Source: a virus
Taxonomy: Duplodnaviria > Caudoviricetes
DNA: 64,000 nt
IMG/VR virus record: IMGVR_UViG_3300026549_000041
Location: 79,101 to 143,100 of that record
Reading direction: 5' to 3' (one strand)
Shown here piece after piece: positions 28,108-63,830 of the stretch. Made by a program: the position numbers and the translations under genes. The notes beneath the pieces are model-generated. The model worked only from the letters and a program-made list of their open reading frames with translations, was not told where the DNA came from and ran no database searches. Positions within the stretch are counted from its first letter, which is position 1, and every line of letters begins with the position of its first letter.

Positions 28108-28121
28108 GCAGTGTCTCCTTT

Positions 28122-30076: not shown

Positions 30077-30110
30077 TATATTTCTCCTTCACAATTTATT
30101 TTCTAATTTG

Positions 30111-30142
30111 AAAAAAAGGAGAGTGGTTTGACTCACTCCCCT
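30111..30142 (-). terminator. intrinsic terminator after holin
   Basis: GGGAGTG..CACTCTCC hairpin followed by T7 on the - strand. Confidence 0.65.
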
Positions 30143-30158
30143 CTATATTATTTACAGT

Positions 30159-30452: not shown

Positions 30453-30466
30453 AATTTATTTCCTCC

Positions 30467-30880
30467 TTAATTACTAACCTTAAAATTATTTTTTTCTAAA
30501 CGTTCTTGATAATCGTTCTTAATGTATTTAATTGATGCTTCAGTTTGATGATTCTTGAATTCGGGATGCTCCCTACAATAATTTAAATAATTTGTAATAT
30601 CTTGCATTACTTGCACATAGCTATCATGACTATGTTTCCATCCTTCAAGAATTTCATCCATAAATTTAAGAATACGGACACGACATGAAATTGCACTGCG
30701 CTCACTTAATTCGCCATCAAGCTTATCAATCTTTTCATCAAGTTTTTTAATCATTTCAATTATTTTGTTTGAACTATCTTCTTTATTATCCTTGCGTTGC
30801 AACAGGAATTGTATAAATCCCCACAACGCATTTGAACCTATAACAGCCACAAAAATTGCTATAATTGAATCTCTGTCCAT
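30467..30880 (-). CDS. N-terminally anchored membrane protein (holin/antiholin-like)
   Basis: Single TM segment plus coiled coil; directly downstream of the endolysin. Confidence 0.55.
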   Translation of the reverse strand: MDRDSIIAIFVAVIGSNALWGFIQFLLQRKDNKEDSSNKIIEMIKKLDEKIDKLDGELSERSAISCRVRILKFMDEILEGWKHSHDSYVQVMQDITNYLNYCREHPEFKNHQTEASIKYIKNDYQERLEKNNFKVSN

Positions 30881-30912
30881 CGGTATATCCTCCCTATAAT
30901 TTATAATATATA

Positions 30913-33933: not shown

Positions 33934-33989
33934 ATATGTCCTCCTTTTTAGACAATAAAAAAAGAACATAATGTTCTTTGAATTCTTAC

Positions 33990-42600: not shown

Positions 42601-42974
42601 TTATATAATTCTAATTGCCCTAATTCTGCTTCATTAGCATGAAGACCTGTAATATGTTTTATGGTGTCATTACTTTCATCTATATTAACAGTAATTTCAT
42701 ACCATTTATATCTTGGGTCTTTTACTGATGGTAAAAATATAAATTTAAAATCTTTGATAAAATCCCAATATATATTTTTTATACCATTTACTTCTTTATA
42801 TACGTCAAAACTAATCTCACTAACATCATTTAATGGATGACTACATCGAAACTCTTGTATATTATTAATAACTCCAATTTTTCTTCCTGAACGAGTACAT
42901 AATACTACAATTGGAACTAGAATGTTCTTATCAATATCTGTTTCAATTTTATCGTTATATCTATAATCCATCAT
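39630..42974 (-). CDS. baseplate hub/Tal-like tail protein
   Basis: Follows the Dit-like gene; large protein with coiled-coil middle. Confidence 0.6.
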   Translation of the reverse strand: MMDYRYNDKIETDIDKNILVPIVVLCTRSGRKIGVINNIQEFRCSHPLNDVSEISFDVYKEVNGIKNIYWDFIKDFKFIFLPSVKDPRYKWYEITVNIDESNDTIKHITGLHANEAELGQLELYNIEINTENDIARDDYEIITIDGKEYGTVFYNPEHPKASLLHRLLSDKASHYSIVHVDETLKNLQREFSFNGTSIVDALNQTIAPEIGCLFIFGESDNNTDDNIFHRTISAYDLMDYCEDCGKRGNYTHGVCTNCGSTNIQNGYGEDTGIFINAENLTDSISFTSNTDQVKNFFKMGAGDEYMEAAIRNCNPNGSNYLFYFSDEMKEDMSDELVTKLNQYETIYDGYLKDYSIYLPDENINKYNILVNKYQNYIKEDIPVMNNPIQGYAELTNYDYNAVNFKDCLQTTMMPSSPDVAETTADEQIAKLTLEHMSPIGTEDSSAMSLTAANTAVESYAKVYVDTSRYKIEITDSTYENNIWTGTITVTSLTDNEDTANTTLTIIFNNDGAQFLKQKIQKMMEEHKVEDIGDVSFLQEDYTDEELETVFKPKLQKYSLDALSLLDDLCSATMDILADANQGTVDSPYYEQFYHPYWKKRKLIMEEETVREEEIKTVEQVIEDIDVVRQDIINTLDMHNFFGEELYSELMLYRRETEYSNSNFISDGLADSEVISRAQDYFKKAQEEIIKASTIQHSISCSLYNLFLLPEFRKILVSDDSSQIQYIGEGLYIDSNGEVHNVGDGVHFVDSTLKRFISLFDGGNWLRVRVDDKVYKLRLTNWEIDYTKPEELEVEFSDVIYSGDTMSDIASLLSQARTMATSYNTVMRQAEKGVVANKTIEQQKKQGLILNQNKIINDVNTQNFVLNSQGALMRAKNDFDDEYSPEQIKLLNKGIYYTNDDWETVKAGLGHFMYYDPETKTTKEDYGIIASTIVGQLLLGENLKIFSESGKFEMGDDGLKVTAIDGEDNTDLFVVQKQKVDDQGRPYVEKYIYVDSDGDVKIAGNSITLGGKPLIEYINEAIEDVEISLPITIQIDSSAGNIFKNKNISTILTATVYRGGEDITSEITRFKWTKKDKNGNLDPSWSRYTTSNIITINSDDVTSKAVFGCEVTIEQ

Positions 42975-43789
42975 GAGAAAGTCACCTTCCTTACAGGATT
43001 ATAAGAAATCTTACAATCACAACTTAAATTTGATTTAAATTTATTAACCGTATTTCCATATACATTATATATTTTAGGAAAAATCCAATTAAAATCATTA
43101 TAAATATTATGAGAATTAATAGAAGAGGATACTTGCATCAATTTATCAAATGTAATTATTTCTCCACTAGTACAACCTTTAATTTCTGTTTTTGTTTCTA
43201 CATTATTAAAAATATTGGTCAATACTAAATCACCACTTTCTTTTAATTCTATAACTACTGTTGGAACAATACTTCCTTCATCAAATGAAAAATCTGGTAA
43301 AATTAATTCTTCATCTCCACCCAATTCTTTTTCATATAAAATTTCTTCTCCAATTGCATATGGACGATTAGAAATAAAAGTAGCATTAAATCCAGCAGTT
43401 TCTTCACCAACTTTAATCCATTGTAAATTAAAAGAACCTTCCCAATATACATCTGCATATTCTACTTCATTTAATATTTTAAATTTATGAGAAGTAGGAC
43501 GATTGAGCCAATATTGTATATCTTCAATTTCTTGAATAGAAAAATATGGATTGTCCTCATTATCTTCACAATAATTTTTAGCAATAGAAAATTCAATCTC
43601 TAATCTGTCTTCAAACGTACTGGTCACAAAAGGTTGATATTTACCTCCAAATAAAGATATTGAATTAAATGTTCTTTGTGAATCAGTTGTAATATCATCG
43701 TCTTGCATACCATTAAAACTAACAATACCTAACCCCTTAGTGCTTAAAGCTATACCGTCATATTCAAAGTCACTAAATCTCACTCTCAT
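42971..43789 (-). CDS. distal tail protein (Dit-like)
   Basis: Directly after the TMP; DFEYDG..LS, WLNRP, FPKIYN..N patterns. Confidence 0.65.
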   Translation of the reverse strand: MRVRFSDFEYDGIALSTKGLGIVSFNGMQDDDITTDSQRTFNSISLFGGKYQPFVTSTFEDRLEIEFSIAKNYCEDNEDNPYFSIQEIEDIQYWLNRPTSHKFKILNEVEYADVYWEGSFNLQWIKVGEETAGFNATFISNRPYAIGEEILYEKELGGDEELILPDFSFDEGSIVPTVVIELKESGDLVLTNIFNNVETKTEIKGCTSGEIITFDKLMQVSSSINSHNIYNDFNWIFPKIYNVYGNTVNKFKSNLSCDCKISYNPVRKVTFS

Positions 43790-43813
43790 CCCTCCTCTCA
43801 TTTAAAATAGAAA

Positions 43814-43845
43814 ACCGCCCTATTCTTTTTACGGAATAGGGCGGT
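43814..43845 (-). terminator. intrinsic terminator after tape measure gene
   Basis: ACCGCCCTATTC/GAATAGGGCGGT 12-bp stem followed by TTTCTATTTT. Confidence 0.75.
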
Positions 43846-43850
43846 GATAA

Positions 43851-46800
43851 TTATCGTACAATATAACTATATTTTTTATAATTATTATTACCATTAGCTT
43901 GACCTAATGTAATCTCTTGTACCCATTTTTCAAGTTTCTTATTATTCATTAAATCATTAACAAATTTATTAGCATCTTGAACACCATTAGCAATAAATTG
44001 CATATTTACAATTGGTGGTTGTCCATTAGAATTATTACTATTTTGAATAACCCTAACATCTGGAGTAGTATATTGTTTCAAATATTTAGCTGGGTCAGTT
44101 AATGCCTGATACATATTTTTCATAGCGCTATTAGGAATTACGGAATCTCCTTTGTTAAGAGGGGTGAGGATTGCCCCATCAGATTTTCTGATAATCGCTT
44201 CGGCTTTATTACCTTCGTTTGTCCAATACAATCCACTTGTTCCTACGCCAGATGTACCAGTTTTATAACCTTTCCACTTACCATCTTTCTCAAAAGTAAG
44301 CCATCCTTTATTTGTAAACCGTCTACCATTTTTGACCATAGTGCCATCACTAGTAACATAGTAAGCACCTTTTTTAGGATTAGTAGTTACTCCATTATAA
44401 TCAATCCAAGCATTAGTAAGCATTGCTTTTGTTCTAGGGTCGAAGTAATACCAATCGGTGCCATTTCCCCATCTAAGTTCAGCCCAACCACTAGCGGCTT
44501 GTCCTTCAGAATTAAAATGATACCATTTACCACCAATTTGTTGCCAACCAGTAAGCATTACACCAGAACTATCCATATAATAAGTCTTTCCAGACTCTGA
44601 ATAGAATCCAGTTTTCATAGCACCTTTACTATCTAAAAGATACCATTTACCATCAATTTTCTGCCATCCTGTTCTTGCAGAACCATCAGAATTCAAATAA
44701 TACCATTTACCATTAGCGTATTGCCATCCATTGGATAACATAGCACCACTCTTGTCCATGACATAAGTTTTGCCACCTACTGTTTGTGCTCCAGTAAGCA
44801 TTTCGCCTTTGCTATTGGTTAAATACCATTTATTATTATCTTTTATCCATCCTGTTTGGGCAGCCCCATCAGAATTCAGATAGTACCACTTGCCATTAGA
44901 GTAATGCCATCCATTAGAAAGCATTGCTCCCGAAGAATCCATGACATAAGTTTTACCACCAATTTGTTGAGCGCCAGTTTGCATGACACCCTGACCGTTC
45001 ATATAATACCATTTATTATTGTCATATAACCAGCCAGTTTTCGCAGAACCATCAGAGTTGAGATAATACCATTTACCTCCAGATTGTTGCCAACCACCTG
45101 AAAGCATAACACCATTATTACCCATGACATAAGTTTTGCCCTTAATTGTCTGAGCACCAGTTTGCATTTGACCTTGGTTATTCATATAATACCATTGCCC
45201 ATTAAGATTTTGCCAACCAGTCTGAATTTCACCTTGATTATTCATATAATAGCGTTTGCCATTTATAGTCTGCCAACCAGTTTGAGCAGCACCAGAGCTA
45301 TCTAAATGATATTGCTTACCATCAGCGGTAATAAACTGCGAACCTGTTAATTGTTTACCTTTTTCAAATCTATATTTTTTACCATTCTTTTCAGCCCATC
45401 CAGTATAATTCTTGTCCTGAGTACCATCAGACCTGAAATATCCTGTAACAGTATTGCCATTTTCATCTCTGTAAGTTTGAATGTTGCCATCATGCCTTAC
45501 AGCTTCGGTCATAGTATCTTTGGCTGCTTCTTCATTAGTTTCTTTTTGCACACGTTGATAATAATCTACTATCTTTTTAACATTATCTGCTATAGATGCG
45601 ACATTATTATTTTCAAATTGGCTACTAAAATAACTAACAAAAGAACGGCTCATATCATCAAGAGTAGATTTTAAAGTATCAGAAGGAGTATAACCATAAG
45701 AAGAAGCCAAATTATTAATTGTATCTTTAATAATTCCTCTACTTGTATTAGCAGTATCAATTGCCTCTCTTACAACACCTTCTATATCTTTTAATTTATT
45801 CTCTAAGAATTCTTCAAAACTTTCTTCAAATTTTGAAAGCATATCCTTAGTTTCGGATAAACGTCTATCATCTTGTGTTTCTTTAAGACTTTGCCTTGCT
45901 TCTTCAATTTGATTCTTTAATTGCTGTCTCTTAGTTGCAGTTTCTTCAGAATCATCATTTTGAATTGCCCTATACTGCTTTTCAAGTTTGTTTAATTCTT
46001 TTTGTTGGTCTGCAACTTTCTTAGCGTAATCAATTTGGTCTTTTTGTGTTTCAAGTAATTCCTCATAATCATCTATAAGTTTCTTTACATAATCAATTTG
46101 TTTCTTAATACCTTTTTCGGTAACATCAACAATTGAATCTTTCATCTTCTTAGCACCAGAAGCAGCATCTTGTTGTGCTTCTTTTAACTCTTTAAGTTTA
46201 TCAACTAATATTTGATTATAAGGGTCTTTTGCTAAGTCTTCTTGTACTTGATTTATTTCTTTTTGATATTCTTGAACTTCAGCAAAATACACATCATATT
46301 CATGAGCTAACAATGCAAGAGCAGTAGTACCTTGAGCAGTTATATCACCTTGTTCGGTGAACAAATCATCTTCGTTCATAAGGTCATATAAAAATTCAAG
46401 TTCATTTACAACACCATCAATACTATCATGTATTTTATCCCAACGAGTCCAATCAACCTCATTAAGAGCTTTATCGTAACTAATTAAATTATTTTCTGCT
46501 TCAGCAATAGCTGCGCATACATCTGCAATGGCAGATTCCATTTCAGACCATGCTTCAGAACCATATTCAATATAACCAGAATTTAAAGCTTGCTTTTCTC
46601 GTGTCTTCAACATTTGAAGTTCTTGATTTAATTTAACAAGTTTCTTTTGTTCTTGGTCATATTGTCTGTAAATAAGAATTTTAGAACTTAATTTTCCAGC
46701 CTCTTCAAGTCTATCAATAAAAGTATCTTGAACATCAATTTCATGCTGAATAGCTTCAACCATATTATCATAATATGTTTGAGTATTTTCAAACAATTGC

Positions 46801-47439
46801 TGATATAATTCGCCACGCTTATTAGTAAGGTCAATTAATGCTTGCTCACTCGCTACGGCTTTGTTGTAATAATTCTGATATTCCTGAATTTTATCCCATA
46901 AATCGCTATCGGTTACATCTTCAATACGGAAAGCACCATCTCTAATTTTCTGTTTCCAAGATTCGCTCAGATTAATAGAATTGGCTTTATTAATATATGT
47001 CTGATATGCTTTACGTTGGTCAGATATTTCTTGTGTAACAAGTCTTAAATTATCTATAATTGAATCATTTCTATCTTCCCAAGTATTATAAGTGCTACCT
47101 ATAATCTTATCTAAATCAGAAATTCTCGCTTCAATTCTGCCAATCAGAATCTCAACTTCATCTAATGTATTCTTAGTTTCTTTTGCATCTTTAGAAGAAG
47201 AGTTTCCTCCACCAGAGCCACCAGAGCCACCAGAACCTCTTGAACCGCCTGAACTACCACTAGAACCTCTTGAAGAACCTCCCATACCAGTAGAAGTCTT
47301 GCTAGGTCTAAGGGCACCAGAAGACGAACCATGAGAATAAGCAGTACCATTTGCAAACCCGACTAAATGTCCACGACCTTTATTAGAAGTAACATAACCA
47401 TTTTCTAATAATTCTTTACTTTGTTTATGATTAAAAACA
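43851..47439 (-). CDS. tape measure protein exon 4 (coiled coil + cell-wall-binding repeats)
   Basis: In frame with ORF 43851..47285 and open up to VFNHKQSKELLENG; joins exon 3 as KGDI|VFNH (AT|T). Confidence 0.82.
44270..45480 (-). repeat. tandem ~20-aa choline/cell-wall-binding (CW_binding-type) repeats inside TMP
   Basis: Repeated GWQ..GGKWYYLNSDG.A.TG units. Confidence 0.8.
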
Positions 47440-47871
47440 CTTTGTATTTATTTTAGTTCGCTACACTAAAACGACTGATAAACAGTCCTCTATATTTCTA
47501 CAGAGAATAGACTATATCTTTATGTAAATATTATATTCATGTTTAATTCTTCATTTATTTCATTATAAAATTTTGATTTGGTAAAATCATCCATATTATC
47601 CTCCGATTAATATATTTAAATATAATATTTACATAATCACCTTTTCCAACTACCAATCGCTTGTAGTTGTACTTCCTTGCGGAATAGTCGTTGAGCGTTT
47701 TCCTATTCGGAACTTCGCTGCTGATTGCCCATTGTTACATTTATATATTTTTTAAACATTCACATTTAGATTTATTTCATTCTTATGTTGTAGTATATAT
47801 AACTTTAGGGGTTTCCAGCAATTAAATGATTTATTTTATATACATCACTGTATATAGACACTATTTTATTA
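47440..47871 (-). mobile_element. group I intron TMP-I3 (432 nt) with HEG remnant
   Basis: GACAU| pairs with IGS GTGTC; AAAATA pairs with exon TGTTTT (P10); CAACGACTAT / AAGATATAGTC core; terminal G. Confidence 0.85.
47520..47594 (-). pseudogene. 24-codon remnant ORF in an intron peripheral loop
   Basis: GGAGG RBS then MDDFTKSKFYNEINEELNMNIIFT*; enclosed by a 17-bp inverted repeat TATGTAAATATTATATT. Confidence 0.5.
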
Positions 47872-50800
47872 ATGTCACCCTTTTTAAGATTTACAAATTC
47901 AGCACCATCATCACCAACAGTAAACCAATTACCATCACGGACAACTATCTCAGTTCCTAACTCACCTGTAAGGGCAGTTTGGTCATCGGGAAGTCCCCAT
48001 TTACCACCAGCATATGCATGATTAGAAACTACAGAGCCTTTAACAAATGCAGTACCATATGCATGAGCTGTACCATTTGCAAAATGCGCCCTATAATTTG
48101 ATGCTAATTCATTAGCTTTGTTAATAGCTGATTGAATACCAGATTTAAGAGCACTTAACCCAGAAGAAGAAAAATTAGCAACAACACTTACAGTTTTACT
48201 TTTAACAGAATCAATTGCACTTTTCATAGCTTGCGCATCATTAATTACTTGATTTTTACCTGCAAGCATAACACTAGGAGTGGCTTTTTTATTATCTAAT
48301 TCTTTTGTCTGTTTATTTACATCATCGCTACCTTTTTTAAATTCTTTTGAATCCATCCCAACTTCGGGTTTAGGATTTTGTTTATCAATTTTCTTATTCT
48401 CTTCTTGAACATGTTTTGCACCTTTATCAAAAGGAGAAGTGTCCATTGACGTAGTTACAACCTGATTAACTTGTTCTTCTGATATGGTTTTATTAATTTG
48501 TGTATTTGTTGTTGTGGTATCTTTAGGCTTGGGAGTATCGCCAGTTGTTTTTACATTTATATGAAGCTCTCCCTTTTTGGCTAATTCTAATAATTCTTCA
48601 CCAGTTGCGTCTGGTTCAAGCCCCCATTTTTGTTTAACTTCTTCAGGTAAATTAGCAATTGTGTTTAATTCTTCTTTAAACTCTTCATCAGCATCCCAAT
48701 TAAAATGAATATCTTTATGTTGAGCTGCATAATCTAATTTAGAATTAATATCATCAACAACTTTTTCAGCTGCCATAAATTGGTCAACTGTAATCGAATC
48801 ACCACTAATATTTGATTTATTTAATAAATTTACTCTATACTGTAATTGTGCTAATAATTGGTCTAAATATTGAACTTGAGTATCATCTACATTTGGACGT
48901 ATTTCTTTTAATGTGTTTATTTTTTCTTGTAAATAATCAACATTGTTTAATAACATGGGGTCAATAGTAAACTGTTCTGAAAAATCAGTTTTCCCCGCTT
49001 CTTTTGAATAAGAAGACAATTTATTTACAATATCATTAATATTCTTTTTAGATGTTTCTAATTCTTTAGAATCAAATACTTTAAAATCAAATATTTTTCC
49101 TTCAACAAATTCACGTTTCTTCGCAGCCATAAAATTTAATAAATCAGCCACTTGTTGAAGTTTTTCTGTTTTTACTTTAGGGTCTAGACTTGTGTCTTCA
49201 GCAAGAGATTGTTGATAACCCATGAGCTTCTGCATTGCATCATCAACTTCCCTTTCACTTTTAGGGTCTAAATTAATTTTTAATTCAGTACCAGTAGTTT
49301 CTTCTAATGCTTCTTTAGCAGAAATAGCCTTTTCTTTTAATTGCTCTAAAGAGAACAAAGGCTGGTCTAAATGAATTTCAAAGCCAGCATCAGCAGCTGC
49401 TCTTAAAATAGAATGGACACTTTCAATATCCATGCCTAACATTTCGGCTATTTGATAATCACCATTTTCAGTGAAATCGAACCAACCTTCTTCAAGATTG
49501 ACAAATTCTTTTCCAACTTCTTTTTGCTTATTTTGAATAGCATCAAAGAAATTCCAAACACCTTGAGAAGTAGTTTTACCATTAGCATCAACCGTAAAGA
49601 AATCTGCTATAGAATAACCACCAGTTCCTTCTATGTCTTTTGTAACTTCATCAAATTTTTCTTTTATTTTTTCAGCAGAAGAAGTCCAAGCATCCCAATC
49701 TTCATTTTCATCATTAAAAATTAAATCAATCCAACTTCTAGTCTTTTCACCAGCCCAACCTCGTTCAAGCTCATCTTTAACAGCGTCATATCCACTATAA
49801 ACGCTATTATACATTTCACGTTCGCCCTCACTATTCTGTTTAGACAACCATGTTTGATAAGCTGAATTAGCATTATTAAATGTCATTAATTGTTCATTTA
49901 ATTTATCAATATTATCTTGAATAGCCTGTCGCTGTTGTATAAAACCAGAGGTGTCTTCACCAGCTGCTTTAGCCTGAAGATATCCTTCTTGTAATTTATC
50001 TAATGCTTGATATTGTTCGTACATAGAAGAAGCATAATCAGCCTTGACCATAGCTTCTTGTTCTTGTCTTAATAAATATGCCCCTTGAGTATTTAAATGA
50101 TAACCATTTGCAGTTCTTTCTAATACCGAATCAAGATTATCACCAAAAGCAGCTCGTAATTCAGTTAATGTTTGTTCTGTTAAACCTGTACCTTTTGCAG
50201 ATTCAGCAAGAGCAGTATTTAATGTATTAAGAACTCCTATGGCACTTTCGACAGAAGAAGAAAACGCATTATATGAGTCAGAAGCCATATATGCAACATC
50301 AGCTGCATCTCCGTGAACAATTCCAGCAGTTACTAATGCATTAATTAAATTATCTGCATCAGCAGTAGTCCATCCCATTGCATCCATTAATGCCTTTAAT
50401 GCATCAGCATATTTTCCACTTGCATAAGTATTATCTTTAAGTGTCGCCTGAATATCAACTTTATCTGGATTTAATTTATATAATTTTTCGGCGGCTTTAT
50501 AAGCTTTCTTTTGTTCTTTGGTTAATTTACTTTGGGCTTTAGCATTATCTTTAAGAGTCTTTTTATCAGTCCCTCCAAATAATCCTTCTTTTTCTTCAGG
50601 CACAGGGATATCTTTAAATAATTCAACTGTATCTCTAAATTTATTTTTAGCGTCAACTAAAGAAGTATCTATTTTATCAAATAGAAGAGCGAATTGTCCA
50701 TTATCGCCAACTTTAAGAAAATCATTTTTAGCTTTAGTCGCTTCATCAAAGGCTTTACGTGCTTCATTAATTTTTTGAGTATCACCAGTAATATAAGCAT

Positions 50801-52613
50801 CTTCAAGATTAGAAACAGAAGATTGATAATTCTTATAAATGTCATAACCTTTAGTATCATTACCAGCCAAATCTAATTCTAAACCTTTAAGAGCTGTTGC
50901 TTCATATTTATCAACAACTTCATAAGCTTTACTAATCTGTTCCTCTATTTTTGCAATTTGCTTATTAAGTGCTTCAAGAGTATCTCTATCTCTATACTCT
51001 GCTTTTAATTCTTCAAGAGCTTTTTTGGTATTTTCTAAGGCATTAATACCATCAGAAGCAGTTCCTTTTACAGAAGCATTAAAAGTACCCATTCCAGCAG
51101 CTTGAATTCGAAATCCATTTTTTAATAATTCATCTGTTATTGCTTTATCTAAATTTGCATTTCCAGTATTATTTAAACCAATATTATAAGACCTATTATT
51201 TTTATTATATTCTTGTTCAGCTACTTGGAAACCTTCATAATCTTTAAAATATTGGTCTTGCGCTTCTTTTTGACTAATTGAATTTAATAATCCAACTTGT
51301 TCTTCAAGTTTACCATTAATTAAATCAACACCTTGAGCCGCTGTACCATACTGTTCTGTAATTGACTTTTGAATATCTAATATTTGTTGTTTAACATTTA
51401 TTGTTTCTTGTTCAGATAAATCTCCAGAATCTAATTGTGCTTTTAATTGCTTGTAAGATTCTATTTGTTGAGATGTAGCTTCTTGTTGAGTTTTAATATT
51501 TTCAGCTGTTGCTTTCGCATCTGCAAATACAGATTCTCTATGTGCATCATATGCTTTTTTAGCAGCAAATAATACAACAGCCGCTGCACCTATTGCTAAT
51601 GGAACAGCTCCAATAGTGCTTACTAATCCTGTAAAAGCACCTTTTAACAAATTAATTCCACCAGAAGCTTTAGCAAAAATTCCACCAGATTCAGCAACTT
51701 GTTCCGCTTCTTCTGCCATACCTAATTGAACATAGGCTAACGCTTGTTCTTCAACAGATAATGTTTCTGCTTCATTTGATGCAGTTTTAGCGACAGAAGA
51801 AGCAATACCTGTTGTATCAACTGCTGATTCTGCAAGTTCAGCCCCAGTAGCTTCAATACTCGCTTCTGTTTTGGCTTTTTCAGAAACAGTTTTTGCAGCA
51901 TTAATTGCAGTAGCAGTTTCTTCGATTACATTTAAACCTTCTTGAGCCTTAGCCATTTCTTCAGTAGCTTTTTGGGCTTCATTTAAACCATTAGCCCAAT
52001 CTAAAAATTGAGTAATTATCCCTTTTCCAGACCTAGCTTTTGTAATAATATTTAAATAAGGAAGCATCAATGCTAAAGTTGTAGGAAGTACTCCTATAGC
52101 ATTTGCAAAATTAACAACTGCTTTAGCAGCATCAATAAAGAAATTAATAATTTCTCTATTAGCAGCATTCGCCCACATTTCTTGCCAAGCGTTGGTGAGT
52201 TGAGCAAGGTGACCCGATATACTTTGTACATATTTATCGTTTTCCCGCATAGCAGAGCCATTAGCTTCTTGAGAAGATTTATATGCTGCCTCTAAAACAT
52301 CAGGAGATTGGAATATACTAGCAGCAACATTTGCTCTTGTTTTTCCTGCAACAGTTTCCAAAAGCAAGTTAGCATTATTTCTACCTAATTGTTTGTCTGT
52401 ATCAACAATTTCTTGATATATTTGAGCAATACCAAGCATTATTTCATATGTTGATTTATAATTTCCATTATCATTTAAAATATCAAAACCTTTAAATCCA
52501 TTAGAAGCAACTGCTGTTGCTTCTTTAATTGTATCTCTAAGTTTTGATTGTGTTGTAATAAGACTGTCAGTATCTTCACCTAGTTCTTCAAGTTCTTCTT
52601 TTGCACTTTTTGT
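47872..52613 (-). CDS. tape measure protein exon 3
   Basis: TKSAKEELEELGED...GNYKSTYEIM...LLETVAGKTRAN TMP core motifs; ends ...NLKKGD-I. Confidence 0.85.
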
Positions 52614-54079
52614 CTTTCTGTTACTTTCAACTTTTAGTTTACTGACCATAATAATATTATGGCGATTAGTCATTTCTGGCTAATTCTCACATTTCATATT
52701 AATTGGGTTATAGTGTGAGTTCGGACTGTATATTCATCCTATTTATCCAATAGGAGATAGCTCAATTTATATAATTACTTATATAAATATTACAGTCTCT
52801 ACGGAAGTAGTGTATATTATTTATATGTTTAAAATTTCTTTTATATTTTTATTATGCTCTATGTATATTTTTTTAGGAATCCAATAATACCCATTTGCAT
52901 AATATCTTTTAGTATGAATACACGAAGCAATATTTCCACTTAAAATACCAGTTTTTCTTTCTGCTTCTTTATAATTCACATAACTGTTTATATAATTATG
53001 ATTTACAGAAAATTGCATAACTTCAACATAATTACATTTACTATAATTCTTAGGATAAAATAATCTATTAGAATATAAAGCATCATAAATACGATGTGGA
53101 GAAATTTCTAACAAATTAGCTATTTCAGTTACTTTATTTCCCTCATTTAATAACGATTGAATTTTATGAACATCTAATTTATTCTTGTCCTCTTGAATAA
53201 CCCAATCAGGTATTTCTTCTAAATCTGGAAAAAACAACTTACAATAATCCAATACGCTAATTTTGTCAATTTTATAGTCATAAAATTTATACCCTTTATT
53301 AATCCAATAATCTTTTTTTATTTTATCTCTTTCTTTCTGAGCTTCCCTTTCATGAAACTGCCCTTGAATTTCAATAGCAATTTTTAATCTATGATTAACA
53401 ATATCGGTACACATAATAGCATTTGTATTTGGATTAATACAAGAGGGGTCTTCTAGAATAGTATCAGGATACTTGTTCATAAATAATTGTTTTAATACAA
53501 TTGCATGTAAAGATTCTTTTCGTCCATCACAAATAGGACAAATTAATCCTCTATGAGAATCCTTTTCCGAATCTCTAGAACCTCTTAAGGCATTAAAAAA
53601 AGACATATGAATTATTTCTCCGCATCTTTTACAGCGGAAATCTAGTATTTTGTTTCTGGTATAACTATCATCAACCTTAGACAATAATTCAAAATTATTT
53701 TCCTTCTCATAGATTAAATATTGTTTAATATTTTCTTCTAAATAAGGGTTACTCTTATGAAACCACATACGAGAAGAGTAATTGGTTCTCTTTAACAAAA
53801 TTTCTCCTGTTACAAATGCTTTATAAATTCCATCAGAGATTGCTAATTTTTGTTTTGTATTTTTATATTCATTTTTAGGTGTTAAAATTTTAATACCAAA
53901 TTGATTTGAAAAATCAACCATATCTTCAAATTTTCTTTTAAACATATAACACTACCTTTCCACGGTCTTGTCGCCCCAATACGATTTTAACCGTTATAGC
54001 TATTTTCTAACATAACATAATTATATAATATATACATGTTAATGTCCATAGATTGCTCTATGTTCGGGCACATCTATTT
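52614..54079 (-). mobile_element. group I intron TMP-I2 (1466 nt) with PD-(D/E)XK ORF
   Basis: CGGGU| pairs with IGS GCCCG; GAGACTGTA / TACAGTC P7; 3' end GTAACAGAAAG|. Splicing gives RLTG|TKSAKEEL. Confidence 0.85.
52821..53945 (-). CDS. intron-encoded putative homing endonuclease (Zn-ribbon + Vsr-like PD-(D/E)XK + NUMOD1-like)
   Basis: CKRCG..CPICD, TDIVNHRLKIAIEIQGQFH...RDKIKK, C-terminal EAERKTGI...IASCI..ANGYYW. Confidence 0.7.
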   Translation of the reverse strand: MFKRKFEDMVDFSNQFGIKILTPKNEYKNTKQKLAISDGIYKAFVTGEILLKRTNYSSRMWFHKSNPYLEENIKQYLIYEKENNFELLSKVDDSYTRNKILDFRCKRCGEIIHMSFFNALRGSRDSEKDSHRGLICPICDGRKESLHAIVLKQLFMNKYPDTILEDPSCINPNTNAIMCTDIVNHRLKIAIEIQGQFHEREAQKERDKIKKDYWINKGYKFYDYKIDKISVLDYCKLFFPDLEEIPDWVIQEDKNKLDVHKIQSLLNEGNKVTEIANLLEISPHRIYDALYSNRLFYPKNYSKCNYVEVMQFSVNHNYINSYVNYKEAERKTGILSGNIASCIHTKRYYANGYYWIPKKIYIEHNKNIKEILNI

Positions 54080-54427
54080 ACCCGTTAATCTAAGTGCAAT
54101 AGTTCTTAATCCGTTTCCTGCTTTAGATACATCTTGTACAACTTGGTTACCAGCAGTTACCAAAGCGAGTGCTTCATCCATATCATTTCCAGCCGTCTTT
54201 AAAGCAGAAGCGGAAGCTTGTAACGCTTCAGCTGCACCACTTGTACTTATACTATAATTATTACCAACTTCATTTAATTTATCTATTATATTCATCTTAG
54301 ATAAATCATTATAGGCAGCTCCCATAGCAATTAAACTCTTAGTTGCTTCATCAATACTCTGAAATTCAGAAACATTCATAAGTACATTAGCACTTTTAGC
54401 AGATTCAGAAGCCTCTTTTAATGTTTC
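54080..54427 (-). CDS. tape measure protein exon 2 (116 codons)
   Basis: ETLKEA...IIDKLNEVGNNYSIST...GNGLRTIALRLTG, typical TP901-type TMP core. Confidence 0.85.
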
Positions 54428-55452
54428 CTTTTTGTTACTCTTTTTATTTAAAAATAAAAAGGGATAGGTCATTTCTGCCTATCTCTGCAATTTTTTGTTT
54501 TATTCGATTATATTTGCAGAACAGACCATACCTTCATCCTAAGAAGGATGCTCCCATACGCTTAATTGTTACCTTTCAAGCTGTGGTCGTTACGGGACTT
54601 ATATATTTATTAATCATATTAATTATATCCTCTTTTGTTTTGTAATACGGAATTCTCAATAATTCAATATTATGGCTAAATGCATATTCATTTTTTATCT
54701 TATCATTTTCTTTAGTAACTCCAAACTTTTCTTCACCGCCCCAACCTTTTATTGGTTCAAAATGATGAAGCCCATCATATTCAATTAATAAATTATAATC
54801 ATATATATAAAAATCATAAGATAATAAATTAGTACCATTTTTATTTTTACAATCTGGAAATCTTTTCTGATATTCGAATTTAATATTTAACATAGTTAAA
54901 TAATCAAATATAAATTCTTCCCATTGGCTATGACGTTTACAACCACAAGAAGTGGTTTGTCCGCTTGTTAAATTTGTTCCATATGTATCGAACTCTTGTC
55001 CACAATCGCATTTACAGTGCCATTTAATATGTCCTTGATTATCTCGAATTCCTGTATCTTCAATAACCATAACATTATAAAATTTTTTACCTGTTAAATC
55101 TATTTTCTTGTGTTTATGACCTACATTTTTTATATGTTTAGTAGCACCAGATCTTAATGCATCTGTTCGAATAATATATTCTTTTCCATCTATTCCTAAA
55201 CATCTGCAATAAGCTCTCATATCTTTTCCGCATCTTTTATAAATCATTTCTAAAACGGTAAAATCACCATAAGTTTCACCAATTATATTTAAAGTTCTTT
55301 TAATTTTTTATCCCACCTTTCATGGGATTAATTAATATAAATAATAATATATACATTACCCACGGAGTTGCCTATCTCTAGGGTTTCTCCGTTTTGAGAG
55401 AGTTTTCATCTGTATATTACTATACAGCGGAGCATAGAACATTTGTTCCCAT
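54428..55452 (-). mobile_element. group I intron TMP-I1 (1025 nt) with PD-(D/E)XK ORF
   Basis: GGU| 5' junction; ACGACCA / ATGGTC P7; 3' end GTAACAAAAAG|. Splicing gives FMRLG|ETLKEA. Confidence 0.82.
54576..55304 (-). CDS. intron-encoded putative homing endonuclease (CxCxC repeats + Vsr/DUF559-like nuclease), probable ATT start
   Basis: WHCKCDCG..L.SG.TTSCGC and YDFYI..YNLLIEYDGLHH...NDKIKN...LLRIPY. The frame stays open 19 codons upstream of ATG 55247, to an ATT spaced 9 nt from AAAGGTG. Confidence 0.72.
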   Translation of the reverse strand: MKRTLNIIGETYGDFTVLEMIYKRCGKDMRAYCRCLGIDGKEYIIRTDALRSGATKHIKNVGHKHKKIDLTGKKFYNVMVIEDTGIRDNQGHIKWHCKCDCGQEFDTYGTNLTSGQTTSCGCKRHSQWEEFIFDYLTMLNIKFEYQKRFPDCKNKNGTNLLSYDFYIYDYNLLIEYDGLHHFEPIKGWGGEEKFGVTKENDKIKNEYAFSHNIELLRIPYYKTKEDIINMINKYISPVTTTA

Positions 55453-58400
55453 ACCCAAACGCATAAAATCGGCAGTTGAATTTTGTAATTGTAATGCACT
55501 TGTACCAATAGCGTCAGCTGTTTCAAAAGTAGTCTTTTGATATCTTTCTAATGACGTTCTTGTTTCATCAGAAACTTTCATCATCTCTGTAAGAGCATCA
55601 TCAAATTGATGAATTACTTCAAATCCTTGACGGAATTGATTAAAGATTTGATAGAAAGAAAATTTAGTAGCAAGAAAAGCAATTCCTTCTTTCATCTTTA
55701 AAGTCATCATGTCCCAAATAGAAAAACTTTTCTTTTGTTCAGCTGAAAATTGCTGAACATCAGCTTTCATTGATTCATAACTAGCTTTACTAATAGTTGC
55801 TCCTGATTTTAAAATATCTAAATATTTTTTTAATTTATTAGAAGCATCATCAGATAAATTAACATCACCGCCCAAAAGTGATTCTATTTTATTTGTTAAT
55901 CCTGAAACTTCCTTCTCCGTTGCATTAGCCGTACCTTTTCTTGTTAATTTTATTAATGCGTCGATTTTATTTTTTAATGATTCAACTTCTTTATTAGCTT
56001 CTTTTAATTCTTTTAAATCTGTTGTGTCTGATTCTCTTAGTTGTTTTAATTTTTCGACAGATTTAATGTATTCCTCTAAAGCATGATTTAAATTAATTAC
56101 ATTTTGTTGCTGTTCTTTTATTTTATTAATACTGTCCGAATTTACCCCATCTGTTGAAAGAGATTCAAGAGGTATTATACTTCCTTCAGCATTTAAAGTT
56201 CCATAAGATTGTATTGTATTAATAGCATTTTTCTTAACTAATTCATCTGACCTTGTTTCGAAAAAACTATCTATCCTATCTTTTAATTCTTTTAATTCAT
56301 TTTCAGCTTTTTCTGTATCTTTAGCTAATTGTAATGCAATATTTTCTTGAGAAGCAGGAGAATTAATTTCAGCTCTTAATTCTTTAACTTTTATCATAAG
56401 ATTGTCAAAAAGTTTTATTAATTCAAAAACTCTTTGAGGGTCACCAATAAGTTTCCCATCAGAATCAAAAGAAGAACTTAGTTCTGTTTTAATATTTCTA
56501 ATTTTTTCATCAATTTCAATTAATTTATCTGCATTTTCAGTTAAAGATAAATTTCCAAAAGGATTTAATATCTTTTCGATATTTAATTCACTATTAATAT
56601 ATTCTTCTTTTTTACTTAAACTAGCAAATTGCTTTTCTATTTGTTCTCTACCAACTTCAGTATAACGATTAATCATTTGTCCAATCTGGTTAATATCGCT
56701 ATTTGTTGTGAAAGAGATTTGCCCTTCAATTGGAATATTAATAGGTTTATTTTTAGCTTCTTCATCAGCTATTTTTTGAGCATGAGCTTTTTCTTCTTGA
56801 ATTATCTGTTTATATTCTTCACCCAAATCATGAGTATTTTGGTCAATAACAGAAAGAAATGATAATTGCCCATCAACTTCGCCTTTTTCGTCCCAAGCAT
56901 ATAATTGCAATTGGTCTTTATATTCCTTTATTTTATCTTGATTTTTCTTTTGCTGTACTGACAAACTCTGTTCTATAAAACGAGCTTGTTCAAGTTCTAA
57001 TTGAGTTTGTTTTTGATTCTGTTCGATTTGTTTTTTTTGTATATTTTCTTGTAATTGCAATCCTTGCTCTGAGATATCACTATAAGCCTTTTGAGTTTTT
57101 ATAGAATCTTGTATAGATTTATTTCTAATTTGCTCAGATTGCTCAATTAATCTTGCTTGTTCTAACTCTGATTGATAATTTTTTTTTGCTTGTTCTATTT
57201 TTTCTTTTTGTGTGTCTAATTGAATTTGTTTTCCTTGGTCTTGTACTAATTCATGTCTGTTTTGCTTGTCGTTTTTTGTATAAATTTTATTAATATTAAA
57301 ATCACTAACTTGTTCTTGTTGTCTATTTTGTTGTAAAGCAGTTTGAAGTTCTTTCTTTTTTATATCTTCAATTCTTTTTTGTTGCTCTAATTCCATAGAA
57401 TTATTTTGCTCATATATAGCATTACGAGCTTCTTGTATTCTTAATAATTCTATATTTTTTTCTTCTTCTGCTTTAATATCTGTTTCTATATTATTTTCTT
57501 TTTTAGGAACGCTATTTTTTGTAAGGTCTATATCTTCAACTTTTTCTAAAGCTTCCGCTTCTTGTTCAATTTTAGGCATAGAAGCAACAATAGATTGAAG
57601 AACATCTTTATTTGCTTCAACAAATTTTCTTTTTGCTTCCGCAGCTTCTTCGGCAGAACCCGAAAGAAAATTAAAACCTTTTGATTCAGTATTAATTTGA
57701 GCCATCGAAGCATCAATAGAAACTTTTATATCTTCAAATATTTTAGAAATAGCAGTTGCAGGATTGGCATTAGAAATATCTTGATTAATTTGTTCTATTA
57801 TTTTATCAGGAGATAAAGTATTAGAAACAATTTTATTTAAATCTCCACCTTCTTGAATTACAAAAGACCTTAATTGTTCAATTAAAGTTTTATAAACATT
57901 TATTTTATCAGTTAAAGGGGCATTAATATCATCAACAATAGAAAAATCAGACATCATGGTTTTTACATAATTACTACCACCTTCTAATTTAGACAAAGCA
58001 TTAAATGCAGAAGAATCATCTCCATATTTATTTACAAAATAAGAATCTAATTCACTATATTGTTTTTCTAATTCTTTTAATATTTTTCTTTTAGCTTCCC
58101 CTTGTTGACCAATAGGATTATTATTAGGCAACCCGATATTAAGATTAAAATCTTTTTGTTTAATTTCTCCTAAAACAGCACTCAATTCTTTTAAAGCGTC
58201 TGTCATACTCTTAACAGATTGAGTAATAGAAGGAATATCAGAACTATCATCTAACGTTCCAAGAGCTTTTTGAATATTACCAAGAAGGGTTAATATTTCT
58301 TGCAATTTTTCTGGAGGGATAGAAGATGGTATTGAAGCGTTAGAAGTTGAAGTGGTGTTCTTTTCAGATTTTGTTTCTTCAGTTTGTTCCTTCTCAGTAT

Positions 58401-60864
58401 TTTCTTCTTTTTTAGTGCGTTCTCTATCTTCTTGAGCAGCTCTTTCTGCTTCTTCTTTTTTTCGTTGTTCTTCTTCTTTTCTTTTAATTTCTAATTTTTC
58501 TTCCGCTTGTTTTTGTTTTTCTAAAAGTTGGTCTTTTTTTTCATTTAATTCTACTTGACGATTATCTAAATCAATCTGCTGTTGTTGAGCCTCTTGAAGC
58601 TTTCTTTTTGTTTCATCATATATTTTTTTTTGGATATTTCTTTCTTCTTCTAATTGTTTCAATCTTTCTTCATAACGTATTTTATCTTCATCGGTCTCTT
58701 GATTTTGCTCTATACTTTGAGTTATTTGTGTAAGCTCTGTTTCACTTTGCTGTTTTTGTTTTTCTAATTTAGAAATATTAATATCTGAAGAATTAAGTTC
58801 TGCTTCTTTTTTTTCAATTGCTTTTCGATTATTTTCTTTAGCCTTTTGAGGGTCATCACTTAATTGTTTGTTTAATTGCTTTTTTTGTTGTTTTAATTTA
58901 TTTATTTTATCTTGTAATTGCTGTACTTCATTTTCTATTTCTTTATATATTTCTTCTTCTCGTTGTTTATGCTGTTGTAAATAATTAATAGCTTCTTGAT
59001 ATTCATAATCATTATCAGTATCAAATTGTTCATTATATAAACGACTATCTGCAATACCTATTCCTTTTGCTGCTTGCCACGCTTTATAATGCTTAACCAC
59101 AAAGCGCATTCTTTCTGCTTCTTTATCTGTCCATTTAGAAGAACTAGGATTTTCTCTAAATTCACGATATTTCTCACCTAATTGTTTAAGCCTTTCATAA
59201 GCCTCTTTCTTATTTTTAAACTCATATTCTTGTGCTAATGGAGCATTATAAAAATTAATCCATGCTTTTTCATTATCTAATCCTTTTTGCTCTTCATCTA
59301 ATTTTCCTTGAGAAGCATTAATTTCTTCATCTAAAGGAGGAAGTATTTTCTCTAATTGTTTTTCTCCGTCTTCGATATTTTTTTTTATTTCTTCTCTTTC
59401 AGATATCAATTTATCATAAGTTTTTTTTATTTCATCTCTTTTAGTTTTTTCTTCTTCAAGCTGTTGGTTTAAAGAAGCTACTGTATTTTCTAAAGCATTT
59501 TTTTCTCTTTCGGCATTTTCAAGTGAACTCGTATATTTTACATGTTCATTCTGAAGACTTTGGAAATCTCTTTCTTTTTCTTTTAATTTATTTTCTTCAA
59601 CAGGCAATTGTTTTTTTAATTGAATTTCTTTATCTTGTGCTTTATCTAATTTGTCATCAATTTGTCTTAATTCATTATCTATTTGTCCTATTTGGTTTTT
59701 ATAATCTTGGATTAGTTTTTCTTCATCTGTATCTTCAAATTGTGACTCTGTTTTTTCTGTATTCTTTTTATATTTTTCATCTTCATTTTGGGTTCTTTTT
59801 CTTAATTCTGGTTTTTCTTTAGAGCTTAATTTAATAGCTCGTTTGGTTATACTACCAGCTCTTATTGTTGTAGGAGGATTTTCTGGCGCTTCTGCGTCAT
59901 ACAAGCTTTGCATTTTTTGATTAGTTGTATTTTTAATTCCCTTGGTCAAATCAGAATATGTTATCTCTTGCGCAGAAGATTTATAAATCCTATCTAAAAC
60001 CGCAAAATATTCTGCACTTTTATTTTCTATATATTTAACTGTAGCTTCATCTAGACTTTCTTGTGCAGATTGTAATAAATATTTATAATCTAAATCTTTT
60101 AAGTTTTCATCTTCAGCTTTTCCAAATTCTAGACCTAAAAATTTTCCTCTTAATAAATATCCTAATAAATCTTGTCCTTCATTTTTAGTAAGTCTTTTAC
60201 CAGACTTAGCTTTTTTATTAAGTTCATTAAGAGCAGATAAAGTTGCCGTAGGATTAACACCATATTGCAAAACATCATTATAATCACCACTTAACTGTAA
60301 AATGGCATCAAGCCTTTTTGCTCCTTTAGTGTATTCTTTCTTCGCCGCATCTTTGCCTCTACCACTTAAATCCGAAAGAGAGGGCAATACAGTAGTAAGG
60401 ATTCCTTGTTTTTGTCTTTCAGTTAAACCCTCTATGGTTTTTAGAATATCCATTACATCGTTAAGGTCTGCAATATATGCTTTTAAATCTTCTCCACTAA
60501 AACCTTTTAACTTACTATAATCTTGTTTAATACCAATATCCCGAAGATTTGTTAAAGCACTTTCAAATCCTTTAATCATTTGTATACGAATTTCATCGGA
60601 TATTCCCTCTTTGTTTATTTCGTTAACAAAATTAGGAAGTATAGAACTTAAGTCCAAATTTTTTACTCTACTTTTAGAAAGAATTTCATTAATATTCCTA
60701 ATAGCTTCAGCAGCTTTTTTTTCTAAATCTTTATTATTAAATTCAACATCTAAAGGGACTTGTTTTAATTGAGCACTGAGTCCCTTTTTTAAATCACTCG
60801 CTATATCCTTAAAATTTTGAAGTTCAACACTCAGGCTGATTTTACCTTCAGCATTTACTCCCAT
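55453..60864 (-). CDS. tape measure protein exon 1 (spliced product ~4696 aa)
   Basis: AAGGAGG RBS; long coiled coil ending ...DDALTEMMKVSDET...ADFMRLG. Confidence 0.85.
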
Positions 60865-60885
60865 CTCAAGTCACCTCCTTTTTCT

Positions 60886-61410
60886 TTAAGAAAAACTTAA
60901 TATTGAATACGATTGAGCCTTAGCTTTTTCAAAACCTTTAGATAACAATTCTCTTTTAAAATCTCTAGAATAAGCTTTTCTTTTAATTCTATTAATTCTA
61001 TCTGGCAAACCTTGTATTTCTCGCCAATAAGCATTTTTACCATAACCTACTTTTTCTTGACCATGAATTCCCTTAATCCAAACATCATTATAAATATCTT
61101 CTTCTGTATAAGATTTACCTTTATCATGATTAGTAAAAGCTGAATTAATAAAAATACCACCTTCATAAATATTTCCTTTGATAGCTATAAATTTTTGATA
61201 AGATAAATCTCCCATTTGACCAGTTCTATCATATAAACGAGGTTCATCATATTCCATATAATACTCAGCCATTTCCCCAAAAGCAAATTTATCAAGTTGA
61301 TTTTGCGCTTCATCAATAATTGCTGTAGCACAAGTCCTAGCGAACTTTTCTATATCTTGTGTAATAGCTTTTTCATTCAAAATTACATCAGGTTTAACAT
61401 TGACCTTCAT
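60886..61410 (-). CDS. hypothetical protein upstream of TMP
   Basis: ORF in the late operon; YDRTG motif. Confidence 0.6.
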   Translation of the reverse strand: MKVNVKPDVILNEKAITQDIEKFARTCATAIIDEAQNQLDKFAFGEMAEYYMEYDEPRLYDRTGQMGDLSYQKFIAIKGNIYEGGIFINSAFTNHDKGKSYTEEDIYNDVWIKGIHGQEKVGYGKNAYWREIQGLPDRINRIKRKAYSRDFKRELLSKGFEKAKAQSYSILSFS

Positions 61411-61412
61411 CC

Positions 61413-61979
61413 TCAATCACCTTTATCTTTCTTTAACACCTCGACCAATCCTTTCCAATCAACTTCCTTACTAATCTTTTCAACTCCATTAAGAAACTTA
61501 TCAATCACACCATGAATCATAGGAGCGTATTTAAGAACTTGATTAGAAATAAAAGCATGAGGTTCATAGTAATTAGTCATCATATCATCAGTCTTCATTT
61601 TTAAAACACTATCTAAAGTAGTGATTAGATTATCAGGCATTAACTGACATACCGCCTCAATTAATCCTGCTTTAGAAAGAAGATTAAATTCTTCCATCCA
61701 TTTATCAGAATGAACAGTGATATTAGTATATTGATTAAAAATAGTATAAATATACATTATATATTTTTTGCATGTATTAACTTTAATATTACCATTTTTA
61801 TCATAGCAACTATTAGCAAGAATCTGGTCACATAATACTTCGACCACTTCAAAATTAATATAATCAACAAACTTAACAGCGGTTTTTAAATAAGATTCCT
61901 TTGCTGTAGTTGTACTAAATTTATTGTATTTATTTACGAAATCTTTAACATCAATTTCAATAGTATTCTTAATTTCCAT
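61413..61979 (-). CDS. hypothetical protein (possible tail assembly chaperone by position)
   Basis: AAGGAG RBS; lies between the tail gene and the TMP. Confidence 0.55.
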   Translation of the reverse strand: MEIKNTIEIDVKDFVNKYNKFSTTTAKESYLKTAVKFVDYINFEVVEVLCDQILANSCYDKNGNIKVNTCKKYIMYIYTIFNQYTNITVHSDKWMEEFNLLSKAGLIEAVCQLMPDNLITTLDSVLKMKTDDMMTNYYEPHAFISNQVLKYAPMIHGVIDKFLNGVEKISKEVDWKGLVEVLKKDKGD

Positions 61980-62017
61980 ATCAATTCTCCTTTTCAATCA
62001 AAAATAGAAGAGTAGTT

Positions 62018-62557
62018 TTACTCTTCTTCAGACCATTCATTTATATATGCTTGCCCGATATTTATAGCATCAGCTTCATTATCATCTACATCTTTATTAT
62101 ATATATCTTTTATTAATTTAATGGAAGCCGCTTTGCAATCATCTCTTTTACGAGCATTAATTCCCACCAAATTTCTCCATTCAGATGGAGTATATTCTAC
62201 ATAAAAAATAATAAATTCCCCAGTTGGAAGATTCATTGGAGTATCCATATTAAGTTGTACACAATATGCCCATATACCACCTATCAATTTGACCAAAGTA
62301 TTAATCGTAGACATATTTTGTCTTTTACCCGAACCTACAATATCTTTTTCTATAACAAGAATATCTGGCTCATATTTTTGTATATGTTGAATTATATCTA
62401 TATACATTATTTGTAATCTATCTTCTGTATTATCTTTTATATGAGACCAATCTAATACGCCCGATTCTTTATATATACCATTTTTAAATACAGCCCACCC
62501 TGTTTTAGTGGAACTTGTATCTAAAGATAGGAGAGTAACTTCTTTATTCTCATTCAT
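62018..62557 (-). CDS. RuvC-like Holliday junction resolvase
   Basis: LSLDTSSTKTGWAVF, LVIE, PSEWR, DDNEADAINIG. Confidence 0.82.
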   Translation of the reverse strand: MNENKEVTLLSLDTSSTKTGWAVFKNGIYKESGVLDWSHIKDNTEDRLQIMYIDIIQHIQKYEPDILVIEKDIVGSGKRQNMSTINTLVKLIGGIWAYCVQLNMDTPMNLPTGEFIIFYVEYTPSEWRNLVGINARKRDDCKAASIKLIKDIYNKDVDDNEADAINIGQAYINEWSEEE

Positions 62558-63509: not shown

Positions 63510-63830
63510 CAATTATACCCTCGGTTTCCCGATATTTATTAGGGGTTTAGAGCACATCATCATCTTGTATTAATAAACAAGAGCAAGGCACTTCAGATAA
63601 AAGAATTTCACTTTTATCCTACGGACTTCATCATCTCATTAAGATGGTATGTCCTGCTCGTTTGACCTTCAAGAATATTACTATTCAAGCTTGGCACTGG
63701 ATTGCCATTTTAAAGGTTTCCCAGTTAGCATAATTTCTAATCGTCATTTCCTACGATTCCTAAACGTAAATTACACACCATATATTTATATGTTCACCTT
63801 GTTTAACGTGGACAACTTGTCCCGAATTTT
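63510..63830 (-). mobile_element. ORF-less group I intron (321 nt) in putative major tail gene
   Basis: GTGGAU| pairs with IGS GTCCAC; GCTAAC..AATCC.GTGCCAAGCTTG..GAAGGTCAAACG core resembles dnaE-I1; GAGCA/TGCTC P7; terminal G. Confidence 0.82.

Follow-up and report, generated by a model that had tools for sequence, protein, structure and literature searches.

The question raised by one locus of the tailed phage recorded in IMG/VR as IMGVR_UViG_3300026549_000041 is whether four long open frames that follow one another on the same strand encode four proteins or the pieces of a single one. The window, i.e. the whole stretch of DNA analysed here, consists of the final 64 kb (64,000 nt) of this record, which is 143,100 bp long and rated 96% complete; the G+C content of the window is about 30%. 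At the locus in question, that of the tape measure protein (TMP), gene callers report separate minus-strand open reading frames (ORFs) of 1814, 132, 1622 and 1144 aa, and an earlier note on this DNA had proposed that they form one giant TMP gene in four exons. Here we present evidence that the locus is, very probably, one gene for a TMP of 4,696 residues, interrupted by three mobile self-splicing group I introns. The earlier proposal is upheld by uninterrupted homologues, by a collinear match to the TMP profile phrog_4211 and by spliced contigs.

Exon-intron structure

On the minus strand, from position 60864 down to 43851, four long open frames are separated by three gaps. The boundaries, read directly from the sequence, give the following layout in the direction of transcription:

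60874..60879, minus strand: Shine-Dalgarno sequence AGGAGG, 9 nt 5' of the TMP start codon ATG at 60864
55453..60864, minus strand: TMP exon 1, 5412 nt, 1804 aa
54428..55452, minus strand: intron 1, 1025 nt, group I, phase 0
54576..55247, minus strand: intron-1 ORF, 223 aa, homing endonuclease by family match
54080..54427, minus strand: TMP exon 2, 348 nt, 116 aa
52614..54079, minus strand: intron 2, 1466 nt, group I, phase 0
52821..53945, minus strand: intron-2 ORF, 374 aa, putative homing endonuclease with C-terminal NUMOD1
47872..52613, minus strand: TMP exon 3, 4742 nt
47440..47871, minus strand: intron 3, 432 nt, group I, phase 2, without endonuclease ORF
43851..47439, minus strand: TMP exon 4, 3589 nt, starting in the conserved motif ..VFNHKQSKELLENGYVTS.. 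and ending with the stop codon

Joined by script, the exons form a frame of 14,091 nt with 4,696 codons plus stop and no internal stop codon. The junction peptides read ..FMRLG-ETLKE.., ..LRLTG-TKSAK.. and ..KKGD[I]VFNHK.. (phases 0, 0 and 2), and the placement of the third is ambiguous by one base in either direction because of a repeated T. The four exon lengths, their sum and the junctions RLG-ETL, LTG-TKS and GDI-VFN given in the earlier note were thereby all reproduced, as was its observation that exon 2, at 348 nt, is a multiple of three between two phase-0 introns. Without splicing, translation would run into an in-frame stop 10 codons into intron 1, 1 codon into intron 2 and 22 codons into intron 3. 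As to the start of the protein, 25 homologues begin at query residue 1.

Identity of the joined product

The 3' end of exon 1 (..NSTADFMRLG) is the beginning of the conserved TMP core and follows a coiled-coil-like N-terminal extension. Exon 2 encodes the centre of the PhageMin_Tail/TP901-type TMP domain (PF10145, E 1.3e-7; TIGR01760, E 4.6e-6) and matches phrog_4211 with an E-value of 2.5e-23. Searched alone it reaches 32.1 bits with PF10145 against a cut-off of 33.2, the domain being split over exons 1-3; uninterrupted homologues carry PF10145. Exons 2, 3 and 4 lie collinearly on the TMP profile phrog_4211, at positions 669-784, 773-1671 and 1819-2541.

All three junctions sit within highly conserved peptide motifs. 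Junction 1 is spanned without a gap in 89 of the 120 homologues of the exon-1 end and junction 2 in 54 of the same 120, while junction 3 is spanned gap-free in 94 of 119 hits, reading ..GAEFVNLKKGDIVFNHKQSEELLENGYVTS.. there. Gap-free homologues across all three junctions place the joined frame far beyond chance. A relative of 1921 aa (P0003) consists of exon 1 and exon 2 in one piece with 91.5% identity and ends exactly at the intron-2 site. Among the relatives of 3158-5000 aa, 11 of 17 cross all three junctions as a single ORF. One of 4623 aa (P0248) aligns in one high-scoring segment pair across query residues 305-4341, and another of 4433 aa (P0251) covers 4597 of the 4696 query residues; further full-length relatives have 4701 aa (P0245) and 4745 aa (P0256). 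These single-ORF relatives imply that intron-free single-chain TMPs of such size exist. The viral-locus search with the start of exon 4 retrieved no related viral locus.

The same alignments bear on the possibility that the tape measure is split, with the four segments translated separately and the inserts being intergenic DNA with free-standing endonuclease genes. The pieces are indeed called as separate ORFs, both here and in many relatives. However, neither exon 2 nor exon 3 has its own start signal, and the first ATG of each (54472 and 52673) lies inside a conserved intron loop, CAGAAAUGA. The interruptions are placed within the best-conserved motifs, through which 54 to 94 homologues continue unbroken; intron 3 is a genuine match to the group I intron family RF00028, and joined forms exist. 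A split tape measure is thus extremely improbable.

Classification of the introns

All three inserts belong to the group I introns. Intron 3 reaches 50.7 bits with RF00028, for which the gathering score is 50. A separate Rfam search by E-value over 43000-61500 gave no match, intron 3 included, which was ascribed to a quirk of the tool. The last base of every 5' exon is T (U in the RNA), and that of every intron is G. In P1 of intron 1 the exon end GGGU and the intron start AUGGGA are paired with UUCUAUGCUC, and a U-G wobble marks the splice site; intron 2 has CGGGU/GCCCG as its P1, and in P1 of intron 3 the last exon U47872 is wobble-paired to G47861 in the Rfam alignment. By script, P1, P2, P3, P4, P5, P6, P7, P8, P9, P9.1 and P9.2 of intron 1 were found to be complementary and in canonical order, and P1, P7, P8, P9, P9.1 and P9.2 of intron 2 to be complementary.

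In introns 1 and 2 the J8/7-P7 strands read GAAGGUAUGGUC and GAAUAUACAGUC, similar to AAGAUAUAGUC in the Rfam consensus. The 3' halves of the two introns share 76% column identity, and their final 12 nt are nearly identical (AGTAACA[A/G]AAAG). An RNAalifold alignment of three sequences, namely introns 1 and 2 and the related stretch of Thomasclavelia phage TR-TP1 (see below), yielded 5 pairs with 2 compensatory changes for P7 and 6 pairs with 3 compensatory changes for P9.

Three other kinds of insert were considered and rejected. The 5' ends of the inserts (AUGGG, AAAUA and UAAUA) differ from the GUGYG of group II introns, the 3' end is G, and the inserts contain no reverse transcriptase-like ORF. 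Inteins are excluded by the in-frame stops 10, 1 and 22 codons past the junctions, and recoding by frameshift or bypass by the boundary sequences together with these stops.

Spliced and circular forms in RNA-library contigs

Contigs from an RNA-labelled library were compared with the locus. The library comes from one sample of a bovine-gut study and is represented by two runs, in which 97-98% of the sampled sequence words of the locus are present; the contigs are identical to the window, with 0 mismatches. Contigs of 6.5 and 21.5 kb that join exon 4 to exon 3 omit exactly 432 nt (47438 to 47871, with one ambiguous base), and contigs of 7.8 and 7.9 kb that join exon 2 to exon 1 omit exactly 1025 nt (54427 to 55453). 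The joints that skip introns 1 and 3 have at least 255 letters on either side and occur in both runs of the one sample. The exon-exon junctions expected from the earlier note are therefore present in RNA-library contigs, exactly so for introns 1 and 3 and with weaker support for intron 2. Two runs of other studies (X3 and X10), which contain relatives 90-99% identical to parts of the locus, hold none of the listed joints and are uninformative.

Group I introns form circles closed at the terminal G after excision. A contig of 442 nt closes on itself, linking 47440 to 47851, and corresponds to a 412-nt circle, i.e. intron 3 minus its first 20 nt. A second contig of 1047 nt links 54428 to 55444 and corresponds to a 1017-nt circle, i.e. 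intron 1 minus its first 8 nt. At the circle joints no letters are shared, and the shorter side comprises up to 156 letters for intron 3 and up to 201 for intron 1. Such circles are hard to explain as DNA.

Several observations weigh against the reading of the locus as one spliced gene. Exon 1 alone has no Pfam or PHROG match. Rfam searches of introns 1 and 2, whole or as 5' and 3' halves, gave chance-level matches only, the RF00028 model being one that does not bridge ORF inserts of 0.7-1.1 kb, and P3, P4 and P6 of intron 2 were identified by eye only. The evidence for the joints consists of assembled contigs, possibly from the sample in which the record itself originated, and the library may also contain DNA, with contigs of up to 45 kb. 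On the shorter side of the joint that omits the 1466 nt of intron 2 (52612 to 54079) there are just 29 letters, and a contig with intron 2 unspliced (52584-54108) at a depth of 12-14 coexists with joined forms at 33-50, these contig depths being no measure of splicing efficiency. For introns 1 and 3, DNA variants that lack the intron could in principle account for the joined forms.

The alternative suggested by these points is that the joined contigs stem from DNA of an intron-free variant of this phage, present alongside the intron-bearing genome, a presence/absence polymorphism and not splicing. A library that may hold DNA, the length of its contigs, the commonness of intron-less alleles at all three sites in relatives and the intron-2 contig with exon flanks beside the joined form would all agree with it. 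It is regarded as unlikely: circles in which the terminal G is closed onto nt 21 of intron 3 and nt 9 of intron 1 are a signature of group I RNA circularisation without a DNA counterpart, and on both sides of the joints the joined contigs agree with the window throughout (0 other letters). Even if it were true, the intron-bearing genome would still need splicing to make its TMP. On the preferred reading of one spliced gene, the contigs display natural excision and circularisation of group I introns in a gut community, as seen in the contigs of one sample from a library possibly with DNA.

Proposed course of expression

After transcription each intron would fold and be cut out by its own ribozyme, a self-splicing chemistry proposed here from the sequence. 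In P1, the last U of the exon would be paired to a G in the internal guide; the 3' splice site would be set by the terminal G. The exons would then be ligated into one message and translated from the strong ribosome-binding site, and the excised introns 1 and 3 would circularise via their terminal G. On unspliced RNA the stops 10, 1 and 22 codons into the introns would halt ribosomes. The introns sit in highly conserved coding stretches, as expected for elements that spread by homing.

The earlier note had further suggested that splicing could affect tail assembly or its timing and that exon 2 might be skipped in frame. In a version of this idea, exon-2 skipping or slow or partial splicing, above all of intron 2, would yield alternative or truncated TMPs or a timed tail assembly. 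The 348-nt length of exon 2 between phase-0 introns, the nearly identical last 12 nt of introns 1 and 2 and the unspliced intron-2 form (depth 12-14) beside the joined forms (33-50) are compatible with it. Exon skipping is nevertheless not expected, because group I introns pick their splice sites via their own P1/P10 pairings; moreover, exon 2 is the conserved core of the TMP domain, and no exon 1-exon 3 joint occurs among the 15 joints listed of 37. Many close relatives lack one or all of the introns, so that this type of phage is independent of them. We regard regulatory splicing as very unlikely, and neither exon-2 skipping nor an effect on tail assembly or timing finds support. The note's truncated TMPs from unspliced RNA are possible, as stops follow each 5' splice site; the regulatory role attached to them is unsupported. 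Early stops after the 5' splice site are common in phage group I introns.

Predicted intron-encoded endonucleases

The ORFs of introns 1 and 2 are predicted to encode homing endonucleases, with activity suggested by sequence comparison. The intron-1 ORF lies in the P6 region, with its 3' end overlapping J6/7 and the 5' strand of P7, and matches the HNH endonuclease family phrog_559 (E 1.6e-36), the homing endonuclease family phrog_9084 (E 1.5e-26) and the intron-encoded nuclease family phrog_7140 (E 1.2e-10); in Pfam it gave only a weak match to DUF5889. The intron-2 ORF is located in the P6 loop and carries NUMOD1 (PF07453, 23.7 bits with a cut-off of 22.8). Its nuclease part showed only sub-threshold matches to DUF559 and DUF2726 (E about 0.1) and is weakly similar to the nuclease core of the intron-1 ORF (E 0.016), and its closest Atlas clusters are viral NUMOD1/DUF4379 proteins. 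A sequence search of the PDB with both intron ORFs gave no meaningful hit.

Comparison with known intron-bearing phage genes

Group I introns in TMP genes have been known since 2008, and the large three-intron TMP gene is a further case. Tourasse and Kolsto (2008, PMC2504315) described, in the accessible part of their report, the group I introns TMP-IVS1, IVS2 and IVS3 in TMP genes of Bacillus cereus-group prophages, with up to two per gene. As in those prophages, several conserved sites of the TMP gene are occupied, the occupation is patchy among related phages, and the introns occur with or without endonuclease genes. The introns of the B. cereus group are assigned there to IA1/IA2. The present case differs from what the accessible text describes in having three introns in one gene, a TMP of 4,696 aa as against '>1200 aa' and an uncultured gut phage as carrier, and in the spliced and circular forms seen in situ.

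In the Thomasclavelia phages TR-TP1 and TR-TP2 (PQ571309.1 and PQ571310.1), which are cultured phages of a gut Firmicute, a stretch is 73% identical to the 3' half of intron 2 over about 160 nt. At 27376-32535 of TR-TP1 a 'tail length tape measure protein' coding sequence (CDS) is followed by an 'HNH endonuclease' CDS, the intron-2-like stretch and a coiled-coil 'hypothetical protein'; the same order is found in TR-TP2. Judged by sequence, the TMP genes of both phages are probably split by an unannotated group I intron and would thus appear to share an unrecognised splitting of the TMP. The insertion site differs, the TMP is much shorter there (annotated pieces of about 727 and 383 aa), and tblastn of the joined TMP against the TR-TP1 locus found no similarity.

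Among other phage genes, orf142 of Staphylococcus phage Twort reportedly contains three group I introns. Intron-split capsid, tail, terminase and polymerase genes of phages are listed in the accessible parts of PMC3706429 and PMC4299906. Like these multi-intron genes, the present one has several group I introns in one late or essential gene, some with homing endonucleases; unlike them, it is a TMP gene, is far larger and is known here from sequence data. The literature search revealed no paper on this phage clade.

Tail length and giant tape measures

At 0.15 nm per helical residue, the TMP would span about 700 nm. The TMP of Bacillus phage Tsamsa (CDS of 9372 nt, 3123 aa) goes with a tail of 440 nm in the accessible part of its description, and scaling from it gives an estimate of about 660 nm. 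By analogy, it is plausible that the TMP sets a tail of about 0.66-0.70 µm, which would be shorter than that of Thermus phage P74-26, nearly 1 µm long and called the longest known in the accessible part of the source. Lactococcus phage 949 (CDS of 9831 nt, 3276 aa) likewise has a very long TMP of a large siphovirus. With the TMP core of Tsamsa and of 949, exon 2 shares 38-43% identity; the TMP genes of these two phages are uninterrupted at the matched place, and the TMP here is about 1.4-1.5 times longer. A search of isolated-phage proteins with the relative P0036 returned 13 records, all of them distant core matches, in which coverage did not exceed 20% and identity did not exceed 33.5%.

The locus adds an uncultured phage clade of about 145 kb whose single-chain TMPs, 4,400-4,750 aa in length, end in choline-binding repeats and are among the longest tape measures seen. 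Automatic gene calling splits the TMP, here and in many relatives, into two to four 'proteins' plus endonucleases, and TMP lengths and predicted tail lengths are therefore underestimated in viral catalogues.

Possible further introns in the TMP gene and the genome

The ORFs of relatives break recurrently at query residues 1804, 1859, 1884, 1908, 1920, 2010, 3501 and 3691. Three related viral loci have a 1253-nt insert within the equivalent of exon 2, between residues 1859 and 1860 (5166-6418 in L014; 3748-5000 in L015 and L016). The breaks at 1859, 1884, 1908, 2010 and 3691 look like more intron sites in the TMP gene, and the TMP core would then appear to be an intron hot-spot in this clade. 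An Rfam search with the gathering score found no intron in the loci of five relatives.

A wider scenario, to which only a small chance is given, would make the TMP core a homing hot-spot with at least seven interruption sites (perhaps 3691 also), in which introns and endonucleases are the weapons of relatives that infect the same cell: TMP alleles without the intron would be cut, and neighbouring TMP sequence would be carried along. In this scenario the supply of the ruler would be throttled by slow splicing of intron 2, so that ribozyme kinetics would be coupled to the onset of assembly of the tail of about 0.7 µm.

Group I intron-like elements were also found outside the TMP gene. Upstream of the tail module, at 63527-63789 (minus strand), lies an RF00028-like element with a sub-threshold score (24.6 bits, E 0.0012), the core of which has matches of 55-80 nt with 85-99% identity in 197 phage records (Staphylococcus, Listeria, Enterococcus and Bacillus). 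An RF00028 match of 53.5 bits at 84104-84347 of the record (plus strand), equivalent to 5004-5247 of the window, was missed in the gathering-score run on the whole window. Other RF00028 matches in the record are at 25152-25410, 2743-2988 and 2206-2394, all on the minus strand, with 38.2, 36.9 and 36.7 bits. Counted with those of the TMP gene, group I introns or intron-like elements number at least eight in the 143-kb phage genome.

Features of the TMP and the tail module

After the core, exon 3 encodes two hydrophobic segments, at aa 2086-2110 (about 52044-52118) and aa 2246-2274 (about 51552-51638). Two further features lie in exon 4 and directly downstream of the TMP gene:

44276..45290 (approximate), minus strand: C-terminal choline-binding/cell-wall-binding repeats in exon 4 (PF01473, PF19127)
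42971..43801, minus strand: next gene downstream, phage tail protein with DUF6558 N- and C-terminal domains (PF20195, E 6e-28; PF20753, E 8e-26)

The repeats match PF01473 with an E-value of 1.2e-58 and PF19127 with 2.1e-48, in 10 stretches each. Tandem Repeats Finder reported tandem repeats at 44664-45285, and a self-BLAST of the TMP listed no internal repeats. Choline-binding domains are also precomputed on full-length relatives. The repeats probably contact the host wall during infection. It is unusual for a tape measure to carry a module for wall anchoring, and its presence hints at a Gram-positive host decorated with choline.

The product of the DUF6558 gene is probably a distal tail protein, and two large tail proteins (1114 and 849 aa) are also encoded downstream of the TMP gene. 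Two overlapping upstream ORFs (61413-61997 and 60886-61416), putative chaperones, had no family match. The sheath family PF04984 was not found across the record, which fits a siphovirus, if weakly; the phage probably belongs to the siphoviruses and infects a Gram-positive host in the bovine gut.

A gene for a RuvC-like Holliday junction resolvase (phrog_159, E 2.5e-17) is located within the tail block at 62018-62557 (minus strand), just upstream of the putative chaperone ORFs. At 30913-33969 (minus strand) a protein of 1018 aa has a tail-protein region together with endolysin-like domains and repeats of the choline-binding type (phrog_291, phrog_6219 and phrog_7043) and is probably a tail-associated lysin. 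A weak Rfam tRNA match of 34.2 bits at 27308-27369 (plus strand) was not called by ARAGORN; seven clear tRNAs are present elsewhere in the genome.

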